In this document: positions 4,088-37,545 of the stretch, piece after piece | How the letters are laid out: each line of letters starts with the position of its first letter | How positions within the stretch are numbered: position 1 is the stretch's first letter | From: a virus | Taxonomy: Duplodnaviria > Caudoviricetes | Reading direction: 5' to 3' (one strand) | Length of the DNA stretch: 40,494 bases | IMG/VR virus record: IMGVR_UViG_3300049924_000315 | Location: 1-40,494 of that record | Position numbers and translations under genes: made by a program | Notes under the pieces: generated by a model | Seen by the model: the letters and a program-made list of their open reading frames with translations, nothing else | Database searches by the model: none | What the model was told of the DNA's origin: nothing

Positions 4088-4116
4088 ATGTTAGGGATGC
4101 CTTTTTGTTTTGTCAA
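4088..4116 (-). promoter_or_regulatory. PR-like sigma70 promoter
   Basis: Minus strand reads TTGACA-17 bp-TAACAT; the -10 box ends 6 bp before the cro ATG. Confidence 0.8.
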
Positions 4117-4196
4117 GGGATGCCTAAACGGGTAAGAAAACACAGATCACAAAATACTTAGGATTCCCTATTGACAATCGCAGCAAGGATCGCCTA
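4092..4196. promoter_or_regulatory. Four operator palindromes WAGG-N4-CCTW
   Basis: TAGGGATGCCTT 4092-4103, AAGGGATGCCTA 4115-4126, TAGGATTCCCTA 4159-4170 and AAGGATCGCCTA 4185-4196, overlapping or abutting both promoters. Confidence 0.8.
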
Positions 4197-4200
4197 AGAT
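4171..4200 (+). promoter_or_regulatory. PL-like sigma70 promoter for the early accessory operon
   Basis: TTGACA-18 bp-TAAGAT upstream of a long run of plus-strand genes. Confidence 0.8.
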
Positions 4201-7955: not shown

Positions 7956-8058
7956 GCCCAACGCCAGGGTAACCGGACCCCAGCAGGCCGCGTAGGATTA
8001 GCCGAAGCGAGCCAAACTAGCCGACCTGTTGTGGGTCCGGTTGACCCGACAGTTGTGC
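7956..8058 (-). other. attC site (103 bp)
   Basis: Minus strand GCACAAC-TGTCG-GGTCAACC...GGTTACC-CTGGC-GTTGGGC, with one extra base in L''. Confidence 0.85.
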
Positions 8059-8082
8059 GGCACGGCAACGAAAGGAATGCAG

Positions 8083-8199
8083 ATGGCAACTTTGATTCAG
8101 CGACTGACGATCATGAACGACCAAGACGGCGCCAAGCACGCCGCTGAGAAGCATGCGCGGAATTTGCTGGCGGTTGTTTCGCCACCATGGGCGCGGTGA
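8083..8199 (+). CDS. 38 aa cassette ORF (not in the supplied track)
   Basis: AAGGA RBS; MATLIQRLTIMNDQDGAKHAAEKHARNLLAVVSPPWAR fills the space between two attC sites. Confidence 0.5.
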   Translation: MATLIQRLTIMNDQDGAKHAAEKHARNLLAVVSPPWAR

Positions 8200-8200
8200 G

Positions 8201-8259
8201 GCACAACTCCACTGTTCAGCCGCCCGCCGCTGGATGTCCACTTGACCGCCCAGTTGGGC
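8201..8259 (-). other. Hybrid or degenerate attC site (59 bp)
   Basis: R'' GCCCAAC and R' GTTGTGC are present, but L'' GGTCAAGT and L' GGCTGAAC do not pair well. Confidence 0.6.
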
Positions 8260-8277
8260 CTGTAGCCGGAGCGTGAC

Positions 8278-8559
8278 ATGCAAGTTGAAACAGACTGGAT
8301 TCCAATGGACCAGCAGCCTGCCTATGTTGGATGGTACGAAGTACTACACCATGCAGGTGGCGTGATGCAGCGCTATTGGCGCGGCCCTTTGTGGTGGGGA
8401 ATGTGCTCCGAGGAGTTTGAAATCGACACCAGGCTTGCCGTTGACCCCGGCACGCATTGGCGCGGTCTGAGCGCGCCAACCGAAGGTGTGCGGTACGAAC
8501 CTATTGCAAGTCAACAGATGCACGCTGTTTCTCGGCGGATTCTGTTTACTGGCAAGTGA
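8278..8559 (+). CDS. Cassette hypothetical protein, phage-type
   Basis: TDWIPMDQQPAYVGWYEV...WRGL resembles small Trp-rich phage early proteins; GGAG RBS. Confidence 0.7.
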   Translation: MQVETDWIPMDQQPAYVGWYEVLHHAGGVMQRYWRGPLWWGMCSEEFEIDTRLAVDPGTHWRGLSAPTEGVRYEPIASQQMHAVSRRILFTGK

Positions 8560-8560
8560 G

Positions 8561-8630
8561 GCCCAACGTTTGAGTTAAGGCGCGACCGGAGGCGGAGCCG
8601 TAGGGCGTCTCCTTGAACGAATGGTTAGGA
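8561..8630 (-). other. attC site (70 bp)
   Basis: Minus strand TCCTAAC-CATTC-GTTCAAGG...CCTTAAC-TCAAAC-GTTGGGC; canonical layout. Confidence 0.9.
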
Positions 8631-8637
8631 GGCTTCT

Positions 8638-9012
8638 ATGCAGACGAAAGAAGTGTTGATGTTCGGACAGCCGGTAGTGCTGGTGTGCGACGCGAACTGC
8701 GCGAAGGCTTGGGGGGTGAATGGCCGCCCAAAGCAACAGTTTGGCGAAGACCCTGACGACTACGCATTCTTGGCCGATGACGAACTCGGCGAGGCGCCCT
8801 ACCAGCCCGGGACATACGAAGGCGGCTTCACCAAGCCAAAGACGCCGGACCAGATGAACCGCTGGTGCAGCCGAGAGTGTGAACGCTGCGACGTGGTGAG
8901 GCCATGGGAAGAACCAAAGGCCCGCAGCTTTGCGGTGCGGCTGTTCAATCAACCGTGGAAGCACGAGCCTTCTAACGTCGCCGATGAACGACAGGCACCG
9001 GTACTCCGGTGA
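8638..9012 (+). CDS. Cassette hypothetical protein, Cys-rich (possible metal binding)
   Basis: CDANC...WCSRECERC; RBS AGGAGG overlaps the attC end. Confidence 0.75.
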   Translation: MQTKEVLMFGQPVVLVCDANCAKAWGVNGRPKQQFGEDPDDYAFLADDELGEAPYQPGTYEGGFTKPKTPDQMNRWCSRECERCDVVRPWEEPKARSFAVRLFNQPWKHEPSNVADERQAPVLR

Positions 9013-9022
9013 CTGTCCGCCG
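8970..9022 (-). other. Partial attC site (L'-R' arm only)
   Basis: Minus strand ...CTGTCGTTCATCGGCGAC-GTTAGAA. AGCCTTCTAAC (8966-8976) complements GTTAGGAGGCT (8624-8634) with one mismatch. Confidence 0.55.
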
Positions 9023-9066
9023 CGAAGATTGCTCGAAGGCGGGCGAGGGTGGCGAAAAAGACTGCG

Positions 9067-9170
9067 CTCTAACGTTCGAGCTAACCGGCCCAGCGGGGCC
9101 GAGAAGGACTGTGATGAAAGCTGACCAAGTAGCCGGCCCCGATGGGTCCGCGTTGAGCGAGGGGTTAGGC
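9067..9170 (-). other. attC site (104 bp)
   Basis: Minus strand GCCTAAC-CCCTC-GCTCAAC...GGTTAGC-TCGAAC-GTTAGAG. Confidence 0.88.
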
Positions 9171-9515
9171 CCCAACGCGGAGGACGACGAGTGCAGCGCA
9201 CCGCCGCGCGTGACCGACCCGCCCGCCGACCTGTGGCTGGTGTACGGCGAGCTTGAGCATGACGACACGCACTGGAACTGCTGCCGCGATGGCGAGGTGT
9301 CTTGGTGCGAGGACAAGCAGTACGACAGCGACGTGCATTACGTGCGCGGCGACAGGTACGACGACGTGCACACCGCGTTGACTGAGCTGCGCGACCGAAT
9401 CAAGGCGCACCCGGCCTACGCGAACCTCACGGAAGACGAGGAAATCGACTGCGGCGGAGACACGGCAGAGTTTTCCTATCTGGCCCGCGTGGCAGATGCC
9501 GCCCTTGGGGCCTAA
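9114..9515 (+). CDS. Cassette hypothetical protein (acidic), starting inside an attC loop
   Basis: AAGGA RBS and ATG 9114 lie within the attC; the TAA stop is part of the next GCCTAAC box. Confidence 0.75.
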   Translation: MKADQVAGPDGSALSEGLGPNAEDDECSAPPRVTDPPADLWLVYGELEHDDTHWNCCRDGEVSWCEDKQYDSDVHYVRGDRYDDVHTALTELRDRIKAHPAYANLTEDEEIDCGGDTAEFSYLARVADAALGA

Positions 9516-9567
9516 CGGTTGAATTCAGGCGCACCCGAAGGGTGTCGCCTGGAATGAAGGGTTATGC
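9510..9567 (-). other. attC site (58 bp)
   Basis: Minus strand GCATAACCCTTCATTCCAGGCGACACCCTTCGGGTGCGCCTGAATTCAACCGTTAGGC. Confidence 0.92.
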
Positions 9568-9591
9568 GTCTGGGGTCGAACGGAGTAGAAG

Positions 9592-9795
9592 ATGGAACTT
9601 GAACGAATGTGCAAACTCATTGCTGCGGTGTGCAGCGCCCTACTCGCACTCTCGTGTTCGAACCCCGAACGCGACGAGATGCGTGAACTGCTCAAGGATG
9701 GCCAAGCGCTGGTCCTGACCGATGCCGACGGGAATCGGTACGTGGTGAAGCACCACTTCGCCAACTCGTACACCATTGCCCCGGTGAAGAAATGA
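9592..9795 (+). CDS. Cassette protein, possible lipoprotein
   Basis: KLIAAVCSALLALS-C signal-like segment; GGAG RBS. Confidence 0.6.
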   Translation: MELERMCKLIAAVCSALLALSCSNPERDEMRELLKDGQALVLTDADGNRYVVKHHFANSYTIAPVKK

Positions 9796-9799
9796 AGAC

Positions 9800-9859
9800 G
9801 CATAACGTTGCCGGTAACCGGCTTGTTCGGCGGCCGGTTCCGAAGCGTGACTTTGTGGC
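9800..9859 (-). other. attC site with degenerate R''
   Basis: Minus strand ...GGAACCGGC...GCCGGTTACC-GGCAAC-GTTATGC; R'' is eroded. Confidence 0.65.
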
Positions 9860-9872
9860 GCACAAAAACCGC

Positions 9873-9901
9873 TTGCGCGCCGCCTATTGATGGCGTACAT
9901 T
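9873..9901 (+). promoter_or_regulatory. Cassette-internal sigma70-like promoter
   Basis: TTGCGC-17 bp-TACATT, with inverted repeat CGCC-N7-GGCG in the spacer. Confidence 0.5.
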
Positions 9902-9947
9902 ATTGGACATGGGCAGCGAACCGCAGCCCGCAACCGGAGCAAAGACC

Positions 9948-10166
9948 ATGACCACCGCCACCAACACCGCCGCCAGCCAATGGACCGAGATCGGCCACTA
10001 CTACGAGCCGATTGCCTACTACGGCGGCCGGGTGCTGAAGTACGCCGGGATTACCTGCCCGATGAACGAGGCGCACATGATGGCCAAGCCCGGCATGTTG
10101 ATGCTCGACGCCTACAAGGGCGACCGCATCACCGCCTACAAGCACGAACTGTTTACCGCACTGTGA
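9948..10166 (+). CDS. Cassette hypothetical protein
   Basis: GGAG RBS; 72 aa (MTTATNTAASQW...). Confidence 0.7.
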   Translation: MTTATNTAASQWTEIGHYYEPIAYYGGRVLKYAGITCPMNEAHMMAKPGMLMLDAYKGDRITAYKHELFTAL

Positions 10167-10336
10167 GCAAGACGCCCGAGCCGAAAAAGCCCGGGCGGCC
10201 TGCGCTGCCGCCCGATCTGCGCCGCACCGCACGCCTGAGCATGCGAACCTATCAAGACGTGGCGGACAAGGCTGCCCGCGTTGGCACGGAGGCCTTAGAA
10301 GCCGCCATCCGGCGCATCGAGGAACCGGCGAAGTGA
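10163..10336 (+). CDS. Small DNA-binding protein, RHH-like
   Basis: GTG start overlaps the upstream TGA; KKPGRPALPPDLRRTARLSMRT followed by helices. Confidence 0.65.
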   Translation: MSKTPEPKKPGRPALPPDLRRTARLSMRTYQDVADKAARVGTEALEAAIRRIEEPAK

Positions 10337-10343
10337 GCAAGAC

Positions 10344-10399
10344 GCCTAACGTTTGAATTCAGCCGCGCCGAAGGCGTCGGCTGGAATGAAGGGTTAGGG
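10344..10399 (-). other. attC site (56 bp)
   Basis: Minus strand CCCTAACCCTTCATTCCAGCCGACGCCTTCGGCGCGGCTGAATTCAAACGTTAGGC. Confidence 0.92.
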
Positions 10400-10415
10400 C
10401 TGGTTGGGAGACAAG

Positions 10416-10559
10416 ATGAGCGACGAGCAGAAAGCGGTGATGGTTGCCACGGTGCTGGAATACTGCCGCACCCACGGCGTTGACTTGAAGGAAGCGCTAC
10501 ATCTGCTGCGCCCTGAGGTGATTCGGTGGTGGTATGCGCAAAAGAAGGATGACAAATGA
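10416..10559 (+). CDS. 47 aa cassette ORF (not in the supplied track)
   Basis: GGGAG RBS; MSDEQKAVMVATVLEYCRTHGVDLKEALHLLRPEVIRWWYAQKKDDK. Confidence 0.6.
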   Translation: MSDEQKAVMVATVLEYCRTHGVDLKEALHLLRPEVIRWWYAQKKDDK

Positions 10560-10654
10560 ATCTGCTTTGGTTTTTGCTTGGCATTGGTCTATGTGTCGTT
10601 GCCATTTTGGTTTGGGTGGCAGCGATTTGCGACCCAGGAGATACTCGTCTATGA
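10556..10654 (+). CDS. 32 aa single-TM peptide (not in the supplied track)
   Basis: MNLLWFLLGIGLCVVAILVWVAAICDPGDTRL; ATGA overlaps at both ends. Confidence 0.6.
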   Translation: MNLLWFLLGIGLCVVAILVWVAAICDPGDTRL

Positions 10655-10938
10655 CGACCCAGAGTGTCGATCGACAGTTTGCGCAGCGGCGCATCGGCGA
10701 GGTTGAATTGGAGAAAGCTCGCACGCTACTCAAGCGAGCGAGTGCTCAGTTATTGGCGTGGAATGAGCTGTACGGACGCGTGAGTACGACCGTACTTCCG
10801 CCCGCTGGCGACGTGCGGCTCGCGGAAGACATCGACGAGTTCTTGCGCCCTAACGTTCGAGCTAACCGGCGGCACGTCCGGTTGAGCGACCGTTATGGCG
10901 CTCTTTGCCTGCGCGGTTGCCCACCGAAAGAATGTTGA
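10651..10938 (+). CDS. Cassette hypothetical protein reading through attC
   Basis: AGGAG RBS and ATG 10651; C-terminal PNVRANR... is attC-encoded. Confidence 0.65.
   Translation: MTTQSVDRQFAQRRIGEVELEKARTLLKRASAQLLAWNELYGRVSTTVLPPAGDVRLAEDIDEFLRPNVRANRRHVRLSDRYGALCLRGCPPKEC
10848..10898 (-). other. attC site (51 bp, short)
   Basis: Minus strand CCATAAC-GGTC-GCTCAACCGG...CCGGTTAGC-TCGAAC-GTTAGGG. Confidence 0.82.
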
Positions 10939-10948
10939 AAAATACCGC

Positions 10949-10976
10949 TTGCGTTTCCGGAAACGTGAACTAGAAT
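10949..10976 (+). promoter_or_regulatory. Cassette-internal promoter with palindromic operator
   Basis: TTGCGT-16 bp-TAGAAT; perfect palindrome CGTTTCCGGAAACG at 10952-10965. Confidence 0.65.
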
Positions 10977-11008
10977 AAACACATCGACAACGCAAACGGA
11001 CTTACCAA

Positions 11009-11215
11009 ATGAACTCCTCATGCCAAGCCACCCCCAGCGATGTTTACGAGTGCATGCTTCAAATCAAGAGCGGCAAGCGCGGTTGCATGACGCTCACCAA
11101 GAAAGAAGCAAAGGCCGCAAATCTGGACTGGTCGTTTGTGGAGAACGCGGCGTCGATCCTGGGCCTAAAGGTGCAAAAAAACGGCCGGTGGGGTTTCTTG
11201 GTGAGCCGCAAATGA
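11009..11215 (+). CDS. Cassette hypothetical protein
   Basis: 68 aa downstream of its own promoter; coupled to the next gene by ATGA. Confidence 0.65.
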   Translation: MNSSCQATPSDVYECMLQIKSGKRGCMTLTKKEAKAANLDWSFVENAASILGLKVQKNGRWGFLVSRK

Positions 11216-11409
11216 GCGAGGCCCGAAAGGGCCTTGCGCCCAAGACCGCAAGCGAGCGCGTCGAAAAGCTCCGCAACGAGCGCGAGGCGCTTGGGCTCAA
11301 ACGACGCGAACTTTATGTGCATGACGACGAATGGCCCAAGTTGCAGGAACTCGCAGCCAAGATCAACCGTCGCCGTGCACGCCTGGTGGCGAAGCGAGAT
11401 GCGCCATAA
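11212..11409 (+). CDS. Small basic DNA-binding protein, RHH-like
   Basis: KTASERVEKLRNEREALGLKRRELYVHDDEW pattern; the TAA stop lies within the attC box CCATAAC. Confidence 0.65.
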   Translation: MSEARKGLAPKTASERVEKLRNEREALGLKRRELYVHDDEWPKLQELAAKINRRRARLVAKRDAP

Positions 11410-11459
11410 CGTTGGAATTGAGCGGCTGCGAAGCAGTCCGCTCGAATGACTGGTTCGGC
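11404..11459 (-). other. attC site (56 bp)
   Basis: Minus strand GCCGAACCAGTCATTCGAGCGGACTGCTTCGCAGCCGCTCAATTCCAACGTTATGG. Confidence 0.88.
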
Positions 11460-11477
11460 GTCTGGTGGAGGAACAAG

Positions 11478-11870
11478 ATGATTGTGCAACCGAAGCTACC
11501 GCGCGTGACGTTCTACCCAGCGCCGCCCGGCGAGCCCTACCGGCCGTGCAATGGCTCGGAGGGCGAATACTTCCACGCTATGTGGTGCGAGGAATGCGAA
11601 CGCGACAAGGTGATGAACGGCGACGCCACGGTAGAGGACGCTGACAAAGACCCGGACCTGTACTGCGAGATTCTGAACCGCTCATTCCGCGACGACGAGC
11701 CGCTGCCCGAGTGGACGCGCGGTGACGATGGGCAACCGACGTGCACGCAGTTCGTGGCGAAGGGGCATCCGCTGCCGCAACGATGCGAGCACACGGCCGA
11801 TCTGTTTGATGAGAGCAAGACGCCGAACGTTCGAGCTAACCGCGCCAATGACGGCGCCACAGGAGCATGA
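11478..11870 (+). CDS. Cassette hypothetical protein, Cys-rich phage-type
   Basis: GGAGG RBS; YRPCNGSEGEYFHAMWCEECERD...CEIL...CTQF; ends inside the next attC. Confidence 0.75.
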   Translation: MIVQPKLPRVTFYPAPPGEPYRPCNGSEGEYFHAMWCEECERDKVMNGDATVEDADKDPDLYCEILNRSFRDDEPLPEWTRGDDGQPTCTQFVAKGHPLPQRCEHTADLFDESKTPNVRANRANDGATGA

Positions 11871-11923
11871 AGATGGAACAAAGCAACCCGCCGGCATTGG
11901 TCCGGTTGAGCGAGGGGTTAGGC
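11822..11923 (-). other. attC site (102 bp)
   Basis: Minus strand GCCTAAC-CCCTC-GCTCAACC...CGGTTAGC-TCGAAC-GTTCGGC. Confidence 0.88.
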
Positions 11924-12139
11924 GCGTGGTCGCCAATCGAGACGGCCCCCGACATGCCGGCCTTCAGCGCGATTGTTGCCTCTCCGATGGCGGATGGCGG
12001 CTACTTCGTCGAAGAGGCGTGGTGGGACTACGAGCGCCGCGAGTGGTGGCCGGCGAATGTGGACTGGACCGACGCGCACGGCGAGCAGCTTTATCCGACG
12101 CACTGGATGAACCTGCCAGCCCCGCCTGAAAGCGCCTAA
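11867..12139 (+). CDS. DUF551-like phage protein in the first cassette
   Basis: WSPIETAP...PTHWMNLPAPP signature; AGGAG RBS and start codon inside the attC loop. Confidence 0.8.
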   Translation: MKMEQSNPPALVRLSEGLGAWSPIETAPDMPAFSAIVASPMADGGYFVEEAWWDYERREWWPANVDWTDAHGEQLYPTHWMNLPAPPESA

Positions 12140-12152
12140 CGTAGAGTAGACC
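12134..12152 (-). other. attI-like site heading the array
   Basis: Minus strand GGTCTAC-TCTAC-GTTAGGC: L box, 5 bp spacer, R box, with no matching attC arm upstream. Same pattern as 36937-36955. Confidence 0.6.
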
Positions 12153-12252
12153 AACCGCTCAGACCGGATCGCGTTGGCCTAAACAGGTGACGTACCGAGG
12201 TTTTTATGCAATGGGCGGACTAAATTTCGGCGGTCGGTAACCATCATGCTCA

Positions 12253-12552
12253 CCCCTGCCGATCGGTTTCGATGGCGTCAAGAGCGGATTCCGGCGGGCC
12301 CGCGAAGCCGCAGGCATGCCTGATGTGCACTTTCACGACCTGCGCCACAGCTGCGCCACCATCCTGCTCGGCCTGCGCGTGCCGCTGTACGTGGTGCGCG
12401 AGATCCTCGGGCACACCAGCATCAAGACGACCGAGCGCTATGCGCACGTGATGGTCGGGCCCCGGCGCGAGGCATTGCAGAAGCTGGGCCGTTTACACCG
12501 CGATTTACACCAGCCGCCGAAGCGGCCCCGAAGGGCCGCTGTGAGTCGTTGA
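12253..12552 (+). pseudogene. 5'-truncated phage tyrosine integrase (C-terminal catalytic fragment)
   Basis: FHDLRHS...ILGHTSIKTTERYAH motifs; in-frame TAA at 12238-12240 upstream; only ~100 codons remain and the first catalytic Arg box is missing. Confidence 0.85.
12521..12540 (-). terminator. Hairpin downstream of the tRNA 3' fragment
   Basis: 8 bp perfect stem AGCGGCCC/GGGCCGCT with a TTCG loop on the minus strand; no clear U tract. Confidence 0.4.
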
Positions 12553-12558
12553 TTTTGC

Positions 12559-12603
12559 TGGTGGGCGATGCAGGGTTCGAACCTGCGACCCCTGCCGTGT
12601 GAA
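12559..12603 (-). other. attP core: 3' half of tRNA-Val(CAC)
   Basis: Minus strand TTCACACGGCAGGGGTCGCAGGTTCGAACCCTGCATCGCCCACCA contains the anticodon loop, T arm and CCA; the 5' half is absent. Confidence 0.88.
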
Positions 12604-12688
12604 CGCAAGTGGCAGACACCCGACCCCAGTGTGAGACGCAGGCAGACCACCCCCAAAGGGGGCATTGTCTGACCGGAATTTACACCGG

Positions 12689-36936: not shown

Positions 36937-36955
36937 GGTCGAATTCAAGTTAGCC
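36937..36955 (+). other. attI-like site heading the second mini-array
   Basis: GGTCGAA-TTCAA-GTTAGCC; same GGTCKAM-N5-GTTAGSC pattern as 12134-12152. Confidence 0.55.
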
Positions 36956-36963
36956 TCACCCAT

Positions 36964-37203
36964 TCAGACCGTAATGCCGCGCAGAGTTCCCAAGCTGCGG
37001 ATCATCCGCACTACATCGCCCTCCATCACAGCCTCTTCTGCGGCACGCAAGTCACGCTCGATAAGCATCGCGGCAAGCGTGCCGGCCGGGCCTATCTCAC
37101 GATACTGGCCCAGCACCTCGCGCACGCGGTTAATCTCTTTTGGCAGTGCAAGCCCTAGTGTTTCCATCTGTTCGCTAATAGTCGTTCCTTGCTTGTTGTC
37201 CAC
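36964..37203 (-). CDS. Cassette hypothetical protein
   Basis: TLGLALPKEINRVREVLGQYREIGPAGTLAAMLIE...GDVVRMIRS; bounded by the attI-like site and an attC. Confidence 0.7.
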   Translation of the reverse strand: MDNKQGTTISEQMETLGLALPKEINRVREVLGQYREIGPAGTLAAMLIERDLRAAEEAVMEGDVVRMIRSLGTLRGITV

Positions 37204-37216
37204 CTTGACAGGGTGC

Positions 37217-37274
37217 GCCTAAACCCGCCACTGAAGCGCACCCGGGTACGGGCCGCGTGCCGGCAACGTTATGC
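37217..37274 (+). other. Degenerate attC site
   Basis: GCCTAAAC...CCGGCAAC-GTTATGC; CCGGCAACGTTATGCG (37260-37275) is identical to the reverse complement of 9799-9814. Confidence 0.6.
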
Positions 37275-37508
37275 GCCGAAAATCATCACGGCATTGCTGT
37301 CGCATCGCCTCCACGGCGCGCGCAGGTCTTTTGACAATCGCTGCGTGATGCCGATATTGAGGAACCCGGCGCCAAGACTTTCGTAAGCAACCTCCACGGT
37401 GCCGGTTTTTTGCAATATTTCTGCAGCCGCCACGTAAAGTGCCCGGTAGGCCTCGGGGCTGGCCGCATCCGTAGAGTCGAGCCCTATTGGCGTTGTTTCA
37501 TTGGTCAT
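37269..37508 (-). CDS. Cassette hypothetical protein
   Basis: AAAGG RBS and ATG 37508; the TAA stop lies inside the attC GTTATGC box. Confidence 0.6.
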   Translation of the reverse strand: MTNETTPIGLDSTDAASPEAYRALYVAAAEILQKTGTVEVAYESLGAGFLNIGITQRLSKDLRAPWRRCDSNAVMIFGA

Positions 37509-37545
37509 CGTCGCACCTTTCCGCAACTCAGTCTCGCGTTGATCA

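Follow-up and report, generated by a model that had tools for sequence, protein, structure and literature searches.

A cassette array with cargo antisense to its attC sites in an uncultured freshwater-sediment phage, and a reversed cassette pool in related phage integrons

Integrons have been treated as bacterial devices, and have recently been shown to bank anti-phage genes; the pieces found in phages were taken for rare captures. Here we describe a cassette array in the virus record IMGVR_UViG_3300049924_000315 (Duplodnaviria; Caudoviricetes), a linear sequence of 40,494 bases with an estimated completeness of 88%, whose DNA is present in two freshwater-sediment DNA runs, one of which may be its source; "the window" below means this whole stretch. 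Positions 7956 to 12156 hold ten attC sites, a set of small genes antisense to the polarity of those sites, and an attI-like site. Together with the loci compared below (cited by L numbers), the array represents a new integron variant that is real, non-random and widespread, joining ordinary sites and an ordinary platform to reversed cargo and a phage branch of the integron integrase IntI. The sites of the main array are these:

7956..8058, minus strand: attC, promoter-proximal, with a 5-nt L'-R' spacer (41.5 bits on minus, 12.5 on plus)
8201..8259, minus strand: decayed attC (18.7 bits); fold no better than shuffles, both cores pairing perfectly with their neighbours
8561..8630, minus strand: attC (53 bits)
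9067..9170, minus strand: long attC (45.1 bits); its loop has a Shine-Dalgarno-like motif and an ATG (9114) on plus
9510..9567, minus strand: short attC (46.9 bits; fold z -3.6)
9800..9831, minus strand: decayed attC, right arm lost (11.8 bits); core pairs 7/7 with 9561-9567
10344..10399, minus strand: short attC (46.3 bits; fold z -5.3 on plus)
10848..10898, minus strand: attC of 51 nt (44.8 bits)
11404..11459, minus strand: short attC (44.4 bits)
11822..11923, minus strand: long attC nearest attI (58.8 bits); its loop supplies the start of the last gene
12134..12156, minus strand: attI-like site by motif match, predicted crossover between 12139 and 12140

A sequence-only reading of the window had proposed that the attC sites are canonical on the minus strand, and four lines of evidence concur. 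A strict scan for L-box and extrahelical-base geometry on both strands of all 40,494 bases returned five sites, all within 8561-11923 and all canonical on minus, against a mean of 0.1 and a maximum of 2 in 40 Markov-shuffled 4.3-kb controls. With a covariance model built from 22 bacterial attC sites, nine minus-strand sites were found at E<0.01 in 7956-11923 and zero on plus (eight at 41.5-58.8 bits, 8201-8259 at 18.7); the tenth, decayed site at 9800 reached 11.8 bits on minus, and the top plus-strand score anywhere in the window was 12.5 bits. This strand check had been set beforehand as the result on which the polarity would stand or fall, and it assigned the sites to minus, not plus. The arrangement R''-5 nt-L''(extra base)...L'-6 nt-R' is present on minus in eight strong and two decayed sites. 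The same attC arm family adjoins IntI in three Burkholderiales loci (L126, L098, L089), directed away from intI, and an aadA7 control given in a supplement of Qi et al. (PMC9892861) has a 5-nt spacer and an extra C in the top-strand left arm; the polarity call thus does not depend on our own geometry rule alone. The plus strand, which carries the cargo, is accordingly the attC sites' bottom strand, as had been proposed.

Complementary gene-body ends, the mark of cassettes that were once circular and typical of mobilised cassettes, occur at 8/9 window junctions, in 117/134 phage cassettes and in 163/176 bacterial ones; the phage count compares with 50.5 (maximum 60) after shuffling and 41 for in-array pairs. 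A decayed extra hairpin lies at 8969-9030 within the 3' end of the open reading frame (ORF) 8638-9012, and accounts for the single imperfect core pair among the window junctions. The 9067..9170 site is 84-88% identical to sites in L004, L019, L047, L052 and L060. No Rfam family matched the window, and an ungapped repeat finder caught only 4 arms. Between the sites lie the following cargo genes and promoter-like sites:

8083..8199, plus strand: putative cargo ORF of 39 aa, no homologue or family match in the searches made
8278..8559, plus strand: cargo gene, 93 aa (phrog_26541, E 1.4e-9)
8638..9012, plus strand: cargo gene, 124 aa, running through a decayed half-site near 8969 (codon score +12.5)
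9114..9515, plus strand: cargo gene whose start lies within its attC and whose stop is the next core's TAA (homologous genes in L022 and L045)
9592..9795, plus strand: cargo gene, 67 aa (codon score +13.6)
9873..9901, plus strand: promoter-like site TTGCGC-17-TACATT within a cassette, followed by ORFs 9903-10166 and 10163-10336
10416..10938, plus strand: two cargo ORFs, 10416-10559 and a second that crosses the 10848 site (codon score +15.9; weak phrog_4609, E 0.024)
10949..10976, plus strand: promoter-like site TTGCGT-16-TAGAAT within a cassette, followed by ORFs 11009-11215 and 11212-11409
11478..11870, plus strand: cargo gene, 130 aa, Cys-rich (78 homologues; phrog_13210, phrog_6074)
11867..12139, plus strand: last of the cargo genes, 90 aa, with its stop TAA within the attI core (weak phrog_924 and phrog_7704; codon score +17.3)

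That the cargo lies on plus, antisense to the attC polarity, had likewise been read from the sequence, and is borne out by codon usage and homology. A codon model trained on this phage's genes (58/59 right in cross-validation) scored plus above minus in 10/10 array intervals, with a positive score in 6/10, and plus-strand homologues exist for six ORFs (8278-8559, 9114-9515, 10163-10336, 11212-11409, 11478-11870 and 11867-12139). An ordinary cassette gene is co-oriented with, and upstream of, its own attC; here the genes are antisense and the attC that belongs to each lies 5' of it.

Several details of the cargo bear on how cassettes are built. The likeness of 9114..9515 to its homologues in L022 and L045 stops at the core AAC, and the 11478..11870 frame enters the next hairpin because the core there reads GAAC. 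Two window genes, at 9114 and 11867, begin inside their hairpin. Bottom-strand Shine-Dalgarno motifs with an ATG were found, in two frames, in 52 and 42 of 157 long phage hairpins and in 53 and 28 of 314 long bacterial hairpins; hairpin-internal starts were rejected as a phage-specific motif, since bacterial hairpins carry it too. The cassettes 9860-10340 and 10930-11409 share a design of promoter-like site, variable small gene and small basic gene, and the second gene of each looks DNA-binding (11212-11409 has a weak phrog_29876 match). The counterpart in L045 keeps the promoter and the second gene with a different first gene; both hexamers of 9873..9901 are retained there and the spacer differs. 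A consensus promoter scan reported neither 9873..9901 nor 10949..10976. For the 11478 protein, a hairpin-like leader precedes 1/78 homologues, one of 401 host-family genomes matched with a broken copy, and neither a search of viral sequences with the protein nor a single degenerate pattern gave a match. A Pfam scan named no cargo gene, and among GenBank phages none matched the array.

The reversal extends well beyond the window. One arm pattern recovered 61 viral loci and at least 147 bacterial-genome loci. Codon calls on 107 viral cassettes were reversed in 94, canonical in 0 and uncalled or ambiguous in 13, and on 235 bacterial intervals (bacterial counts in this comparison are among the matches listed) canonical in 56, reversed in 17 and uncalled or ambiguous in 162. 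Because the codon model was trained on phage genes, a homology test was added, in which 70 random cassettes per set with an ORF on both strands were drawn and the longest ORF per strand was scanned. In the viral set the best PHROG match was reversed in 21 and canonical in 0, the two weak canonical PHROG matches both lying beneath methyltransferases. In the bacterial set (L062 and L066 excluded) Pfam matches were canonical in 21 and reversed in 2, the latter a ParE toxin (L075) and a piece of IS1595; most other "reversed" bacterial codon calls look like noise. Scored thus, attC strand against coding strand across phage and bacterial arrays, the distinct inverted cassette class put forward by the sequence-only reading is present in phages.

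L066 (a Sulfuritalea bin) and L154/L384 (a Pseudomonadota bin) were rejected as bacterial exceptions, being phage contigs in bins; each has reversed attC sites in its early region. Ten phages sharing the lysis-side gene had no attC site in their fetched flanks. Named cargo among the 70 sampled viral cassettes comprised five DNA methyltransferases, two Mom-like proteins, a Lar-like protein, an HNH nuclease and an RNA ligase, and looks likely to consist of counter-defence or anti-restriction genes. The array L069:7755-11941 (Acidovorax lacteus) holds several copies, 82-100% identical, of the same cassette ends, which suggests tandem cassette duplication.

The arrays, followed in gene direction, end in a recurring half-site past the last hairpin. 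A first attI pattern had no match across 208 loci. In the stretches of up to 2 kb that follow the last hairpin (148 kb), the motif finally used had 20 matches; the DNA ahead of the first hairpin (183 kb) had 0, and one match lay on the opposite strand. In the window it matched exactly twice, once at the end of each of two arrays. The window attI at 12134..12156 can be aligned both to the attI that precedes intI in L299 and to the host attI of L126. When a host IntI was used as query against the viral loci, full-length integron integrases appeared directly behind the attI-like site, and those of L014, L026, L225 and L251 are intact (TIGR02249 427-435 bits, cut-off 265). These counts and the position beside phage intI place attI at the promoter-distal end, as had been proposed. 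The companion proposal, that older sites lie nearer the promoter, also finds support: in 14/16 arrays ordered by hand the attI-proximal attC outscores the distal one (Wilcoxon p 0.001), and over 100 sites the rank correlation is -0.33, where locus ends may clip arrays.

An alignment scan with the phage IntIs found relatives in 67 viral loci, of which 58 were examined after nine partial, edge or duplicate rows had been excluded. The upstream attC has the ordinary platform polarity, opposite to intI, in 32/58 loci, and any same-strand site occurs in 4/58. Cassette calls at these loci were reversed in 29, canonical in four (three of them in L330, which looks like a host array) and uncertain in 15. 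Among 33 chosen loci with upstream room, 31 have intI and the best gene upstream of it on the same strand; in hosts that gene is on the opposite strand in 14/18. In a FastTree tree of 94 proteins, 46 viral IntIs fall on one branch (support 97), apart from 35 IntIs of bacterial genomes. Across L275-L324, 46 intact viral IntIs have sites of one attI family lying 40-200 bases upstream of them; their carriers are phages of lambdoid type and of a Mu-like kind (L014). The order in relatives is early genes, cargo, attI, intact intI, phage Int and lysis, with cargo and intI on the same strand.

The setting of the array in the window is defined by these features:

4171..4200, plus strand: sigma70-like promoter TTGACA-18-TAAGAT, rightward half of a divergent pair and predicted early promoter toward the array
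4116-4088, minus strand: sigma70-like partner promoter, facing a Cro-like gene, an O-like initiator and DnaB
12259..12552, plus strand: 3' remnant of a lambda-type phage integrase with the motif HDLRH (PF00589, phrog_1)
12555..12607, minus strand: attP-like 3' half of a tRNA ending in CCA, common to L251

A consensus scan placed the divergent pair at 4088-4200. Leftward follow the Cro-like gene, the O-like initiator and DnaB, then terminase, structural and lysis genes; rightward come small unknown genes, the array, the integrase remnant and the attP-like tRNA end. Gene order suggests that the window is a lambdoid-type phage and the array an accessory stretch of its early operon. The remnant was ruled out as an IntI (TIGR02249 37.5 bits against a cut-off of 265) and is 71% identical in DNA to the Int of L251. 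ARAGORN reported no whole tRNA at 12555..12607, a half that is presumably tRNA-Val. No cI-like repressor was recognised among the tested proteins flanking the divergent promoter, so the phage may no longer lysogenise.

At 12140-12607 a deletion joins attI to the last third of the phage integrase, with the attP-like tRNA end retained. L251, whose order is array, attI, intI, Int, lysis, resembles the window at 49% in an early gene and at 71% DNA identity over the Int 3' end with attP. No IntI stands next to attI in the window, and only the end of Int remains; since the attI-Int junction is also spanned by a contig of the second run, the window phage appears to be a deletion derivative that has likely lost its own intI and relies on IntI in trans. 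Host IntI is present in 80/201 genomes of the likely host family, and among 401 host-family genomes the array DNA of L275 was matched by intI alone, in 2. The window array is also a cluster of attC sites without an integron-integrase (CALIN), here with attI retained on a contig about 88% complete. On the minus strand near 12140 no consensus Pc promoter was found; such a promoter would read the cargo antisense.

A second, miniature locus lies in the late operon:

36937..36955, plus strand: second attI, of the phage-IntI type, between terminase-side helix-turn-helix and head-joining genes
36964..37203, minus strand: cargo ORF, 79 aa (codon score +13.0 against -22.7)
37217..37274, plus strand: decayed attC-like site; arms attC-like by eye, no model match at E<5, fold no better than shuffles
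37269..37526, minus strand: ORF stopping on the TAA of the 37268-37274 core (codon score +6.0)

This locus had been described as a second array mirroring the first. The plus-polarity attI and the minus-strand ORFs support that description, and the attI is near-identical to the attI before intI in L318, L320 and L298; the array itself shrinks to a single attC-like site, decayed and without a covariance match. It is thus a genuine phage attI with one decayed attC and two minus-strand ORFs, a miniature mirror image.

Comparison with known systems places the variant more exactly. Single inverted cassettes that bring a promoter of their own, toxin-antitoxin cassettes for example, likewise have a gene antisense to attC, as in the ParE case in L075; they are exceptions in host arrays, whereas here the entire array and pool are inverted and mostly promoterless. 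Sedentary integrons of Burkholderiales/Sphaerotilaceae (Pseudaquabacterium pictum L126, Roseateles aquae L098) share the attC arm family, the intI-attI-attC geometry, a similar attI core and complementary cassette ends. They differ in the direction of the cargo, which in hosts runs with attC and against intI, while phage cargo is reversed and on the intI strand; the phage system also has phage-like cargo, mixed hairpin types and a separate IntI branch. Inverted-integrase ("reverse") integrons resemble it in having intI and cargo on the same strand, but there, as described in PMC13323075, intI is flipped and shares its strand with attC, whereas here the cargo is flipped and intI and attC occupy opposite strands, as the strand counts at the 58 loci attest. 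Top-strand cassette insertion (Nivina et al. 2016, PMC5027507) also yields a gene facing against its array; as reasoned from the legend of Figure 1D, it cannot alone give agreeing hairpins with every gene reversed. As an origin for the class, top-strand insertion of whole cassettes was rejected, because it flips gene and hairpin together and so keeps the gene-attC polarity.

Phage integrons and CALINs have been described before. Qi et al. 2023 (PMC9892861) present attC arrays in phages with methyltransferase cargo, report phage-borne pieces in 21/10,705 genomes, and show that IntI1 recombines 5/6 phage attC sites, the bottom strand more than the top. Complete integrons there are captured chromosomal or class 1 pieces, and the main text and a term search of one supplement yielded no systematic gene-attC inversion, phage IntI lineage or hairpin start codons. 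A literature search in which subscription journals were thinly covered found no account of inverted phage cassettes or of a phage IntI lineage.

The sequence-only reading had further suggested that such cassettes could be stored, silent, in host integrons. Storage finds partial support: reversed phage-type cassettes occur in L062 and probably in L381, both short bin contigs, and they look rare (2/235 bacterial intervals among the matches listed). In L062, a contig of a Rhodanobacteraceae bin whose host IntI is on another contig, a reversed cassette at 1244-1872 with 73% identity to phage cassettes stands among sites of the host type (110 nt) and a canonical gene rich in AT; in L381:1583-2482 a reversed cytosine methylase stands beside a canonical ORF in a mixed array. 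A 110-nt host-type hairpin (L062:1139-1249) also occurs in phage arrays at 85% identity (L013, L231), which suggests an exchange of hairpins between the two pools. Two cassettes of the window, 9800-10344 and 10898-11404, would not stay silent, since each has a promoter-like site of its own.

An unexpected finding is that phages exchange their hairpins and their gene bodies independently of one another, with breakpoints at both R boxes. In cross-locus pairs among 277 phage sites, likeness covered the gene start only in 36, the hairpin only in 84 and the gene end only in 23; hairpin with gene start in three, gene end with hairpin in one, and all three in two. Some switch points coincide with AA|C, some with the R'' G|TT, and others lie within the arms. 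Among 14 near-identical gene-body pairs, the upstream hairpin alone was common to four, the downstream alone to one, both to three and neither to six. Three of the four upstream-only pairs are one cassette in three phages: its hairpin and gene are 100% identical in L250, L252 and L269, each with a different next hairpin. One pair, L246/L269, has the gene and its downstream hairpin in common, and the 11822 hairpin matches L060:9565-9663 at 98% identity between AAC and the R'' box, the genes that follow the two hairpins being different. A bacterial linkage control (among the matches listed) gave 130 linked and 48 not, a ratio inflated by uniform hairpins per genome. Such independent assortment makes bottom-strand recombination alone insufficient; either top-strand recombination at R'' is common, or short-homology recombination occurs in the arms. 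Bottom-by-top exchange between neighbouring hairpins could, speculatively, flip a gene body in place and so have originated the class.

We consider it likely that the main array and its attI belong to a phage-borne integron with cargo antisense to attC, served by IntI in trans and probably read from the early promoter. IntI supplied in trans would recombine hairpins of the plus (bottom) strand, new cassettes would insert at the promoter-distal attI, and the cargo would be read from the phage early promoter. The elements intI, attI and attC keep their ordinary geometry, with intI directed away from the array. If the platform entered the early operon in the direction that puts intI on the strand being transcribed, its array would come to lie upstream with its attC polarity against transcription; only reversed-gene cassettes would then be expressed, and a phage-specific pool would have evolved. 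The IntI that directly follows attI in relatives would thus supply a reason for the inversion. A cassette would equal a hairpin and the gene behind it; in many cases a long hairpin provides both ribosome-binding site and start codon, and the core TAA commonly serves as the stop. In a second process, hairpins would be replaced at R'', either through IntI acting on the top strand or through recombination over short homologies in the conserved arms. Replication from the O-like gene would make plus the lagging-strand template across the array, a template reported to favour attC folding (PMC8946536).

Several observations weigh against this reading. The same gene start lies behind a different hairpin in 36 site pairs and behind the same hairpin in five, and the upstream hairpin differs in 7/14 near-identical gene-body pairs. 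Contigs of the two DNA runs contain no cassette-skipping joint, and no read joint of an excised cassette was seen; one long joint, 10370-11436 (depth 2.2, side 24), was rejected as a cassette skip, as it looks like another organism's hairpin. Three window sites are decayed, on a contig estimated to be 88% complete. The codon model fails on AT-rich host cassettes, leaving 157/235 uncalled among the matches listed and 22/25 in IntI-anchored arrays. The crude longest-ORF measure points the same way but is noisier, with 77 reversed against 37 canonical viral cassettes (n=114), 62 reversed against 184 canonical bacterial ones (among the matches listed), and 19 reversed against 10 canonical beside phage intI. 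The attI motif was composed after examples had been viewed, and its 20 matches include those of the window. The IntI tree was made with FastTree, its hosts are the top scorers of one family, and its viral rows were obtained with a phage query.

Other explanations draw on the same observations. The hairpin arms could be short shared boundary sequences for homologous recombination by phage functions (Red/Erf-type annealing), with the attC shape inherited and IntI minor. The gene-only, hairpin-only and gene-end-only pairs would fit, as would the switch points inside arms, an Erf-like protein upstream of the array in L066 and the absence of intI from the fetched flank of most examined arrays. We regard this as unlikely, because the extra base and spacer asymmetry stay on one strand across whole arrays, the complementary ends are so frequent, many phages retain attI and an intact intI, other switch points fall exactly at the core, and no annealing protein was recognised among 18 tested window proteins. 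It is also quite improbable that the array here is a frozen relic of a functional ancestor, its sites decaying since the loss of intI so that only the genes matter. The lost intI and Int, the decay at 8201, 9800, 37217 and the half-site near 8969, and the zero cassette-skipping joints speak for this; eight sites still score 41-59 bits, attI is intact, 11822-11923 is 98% identical to another phage's site that fronts a different gene, and IntI is available in 80/201 likely hosts.

The inversion itself would be only apparent if the phage integrase preferred the other strand and each gene moved with its downstream hairpin as ordinarily. Breakpoints at the R'' box, the L246/L269 pair and the top-strand recombination, at low rates, of some natural attC sites, as given by Nivina et al. 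2016 (PMC5027507), speak for it. It is nonetheless very unlikely, since attI has its GTT on the strand that bears the R' boxes and sits at the end that ordinary polarity predicts, 32 loci have ordinary intI-attI-attC geometry, and a gene shares its upstream hairpin in four pairs against one for the downstream.

A more far-reaching extension of the integron reading, which we hold tentatively and with considerable doubt, is that the phage-specific IntI lineage uses both R boxes: bottom-strand recombination would move hairpin and gene together, top-strand recombination at R'' would attach new gene bodies to hairpins or turn a gene round between two hairpins that stay fixed, and the loop would supply the ribosome-binding site and start. 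Complete integrons are present in dozens of uncultured phages, together with an integrase branch, an attI family and a reversed cassette pool that are the phages' own, and the carrier phages likely run a gene-swapping system of their own, read from the early promoter. That hairpins and gene bodies move separately is relevant to a long-open question, how a gene first gains its attC site, and the sites and enzymes named here make that question testable in a standard conjugation assay. If both R boxes are indeed used, phages would be a visible workshop of cassette genesis, mirroring the anti-phage cassette banks of their hosts, and the phage and host pools would trade through shared attC arms.

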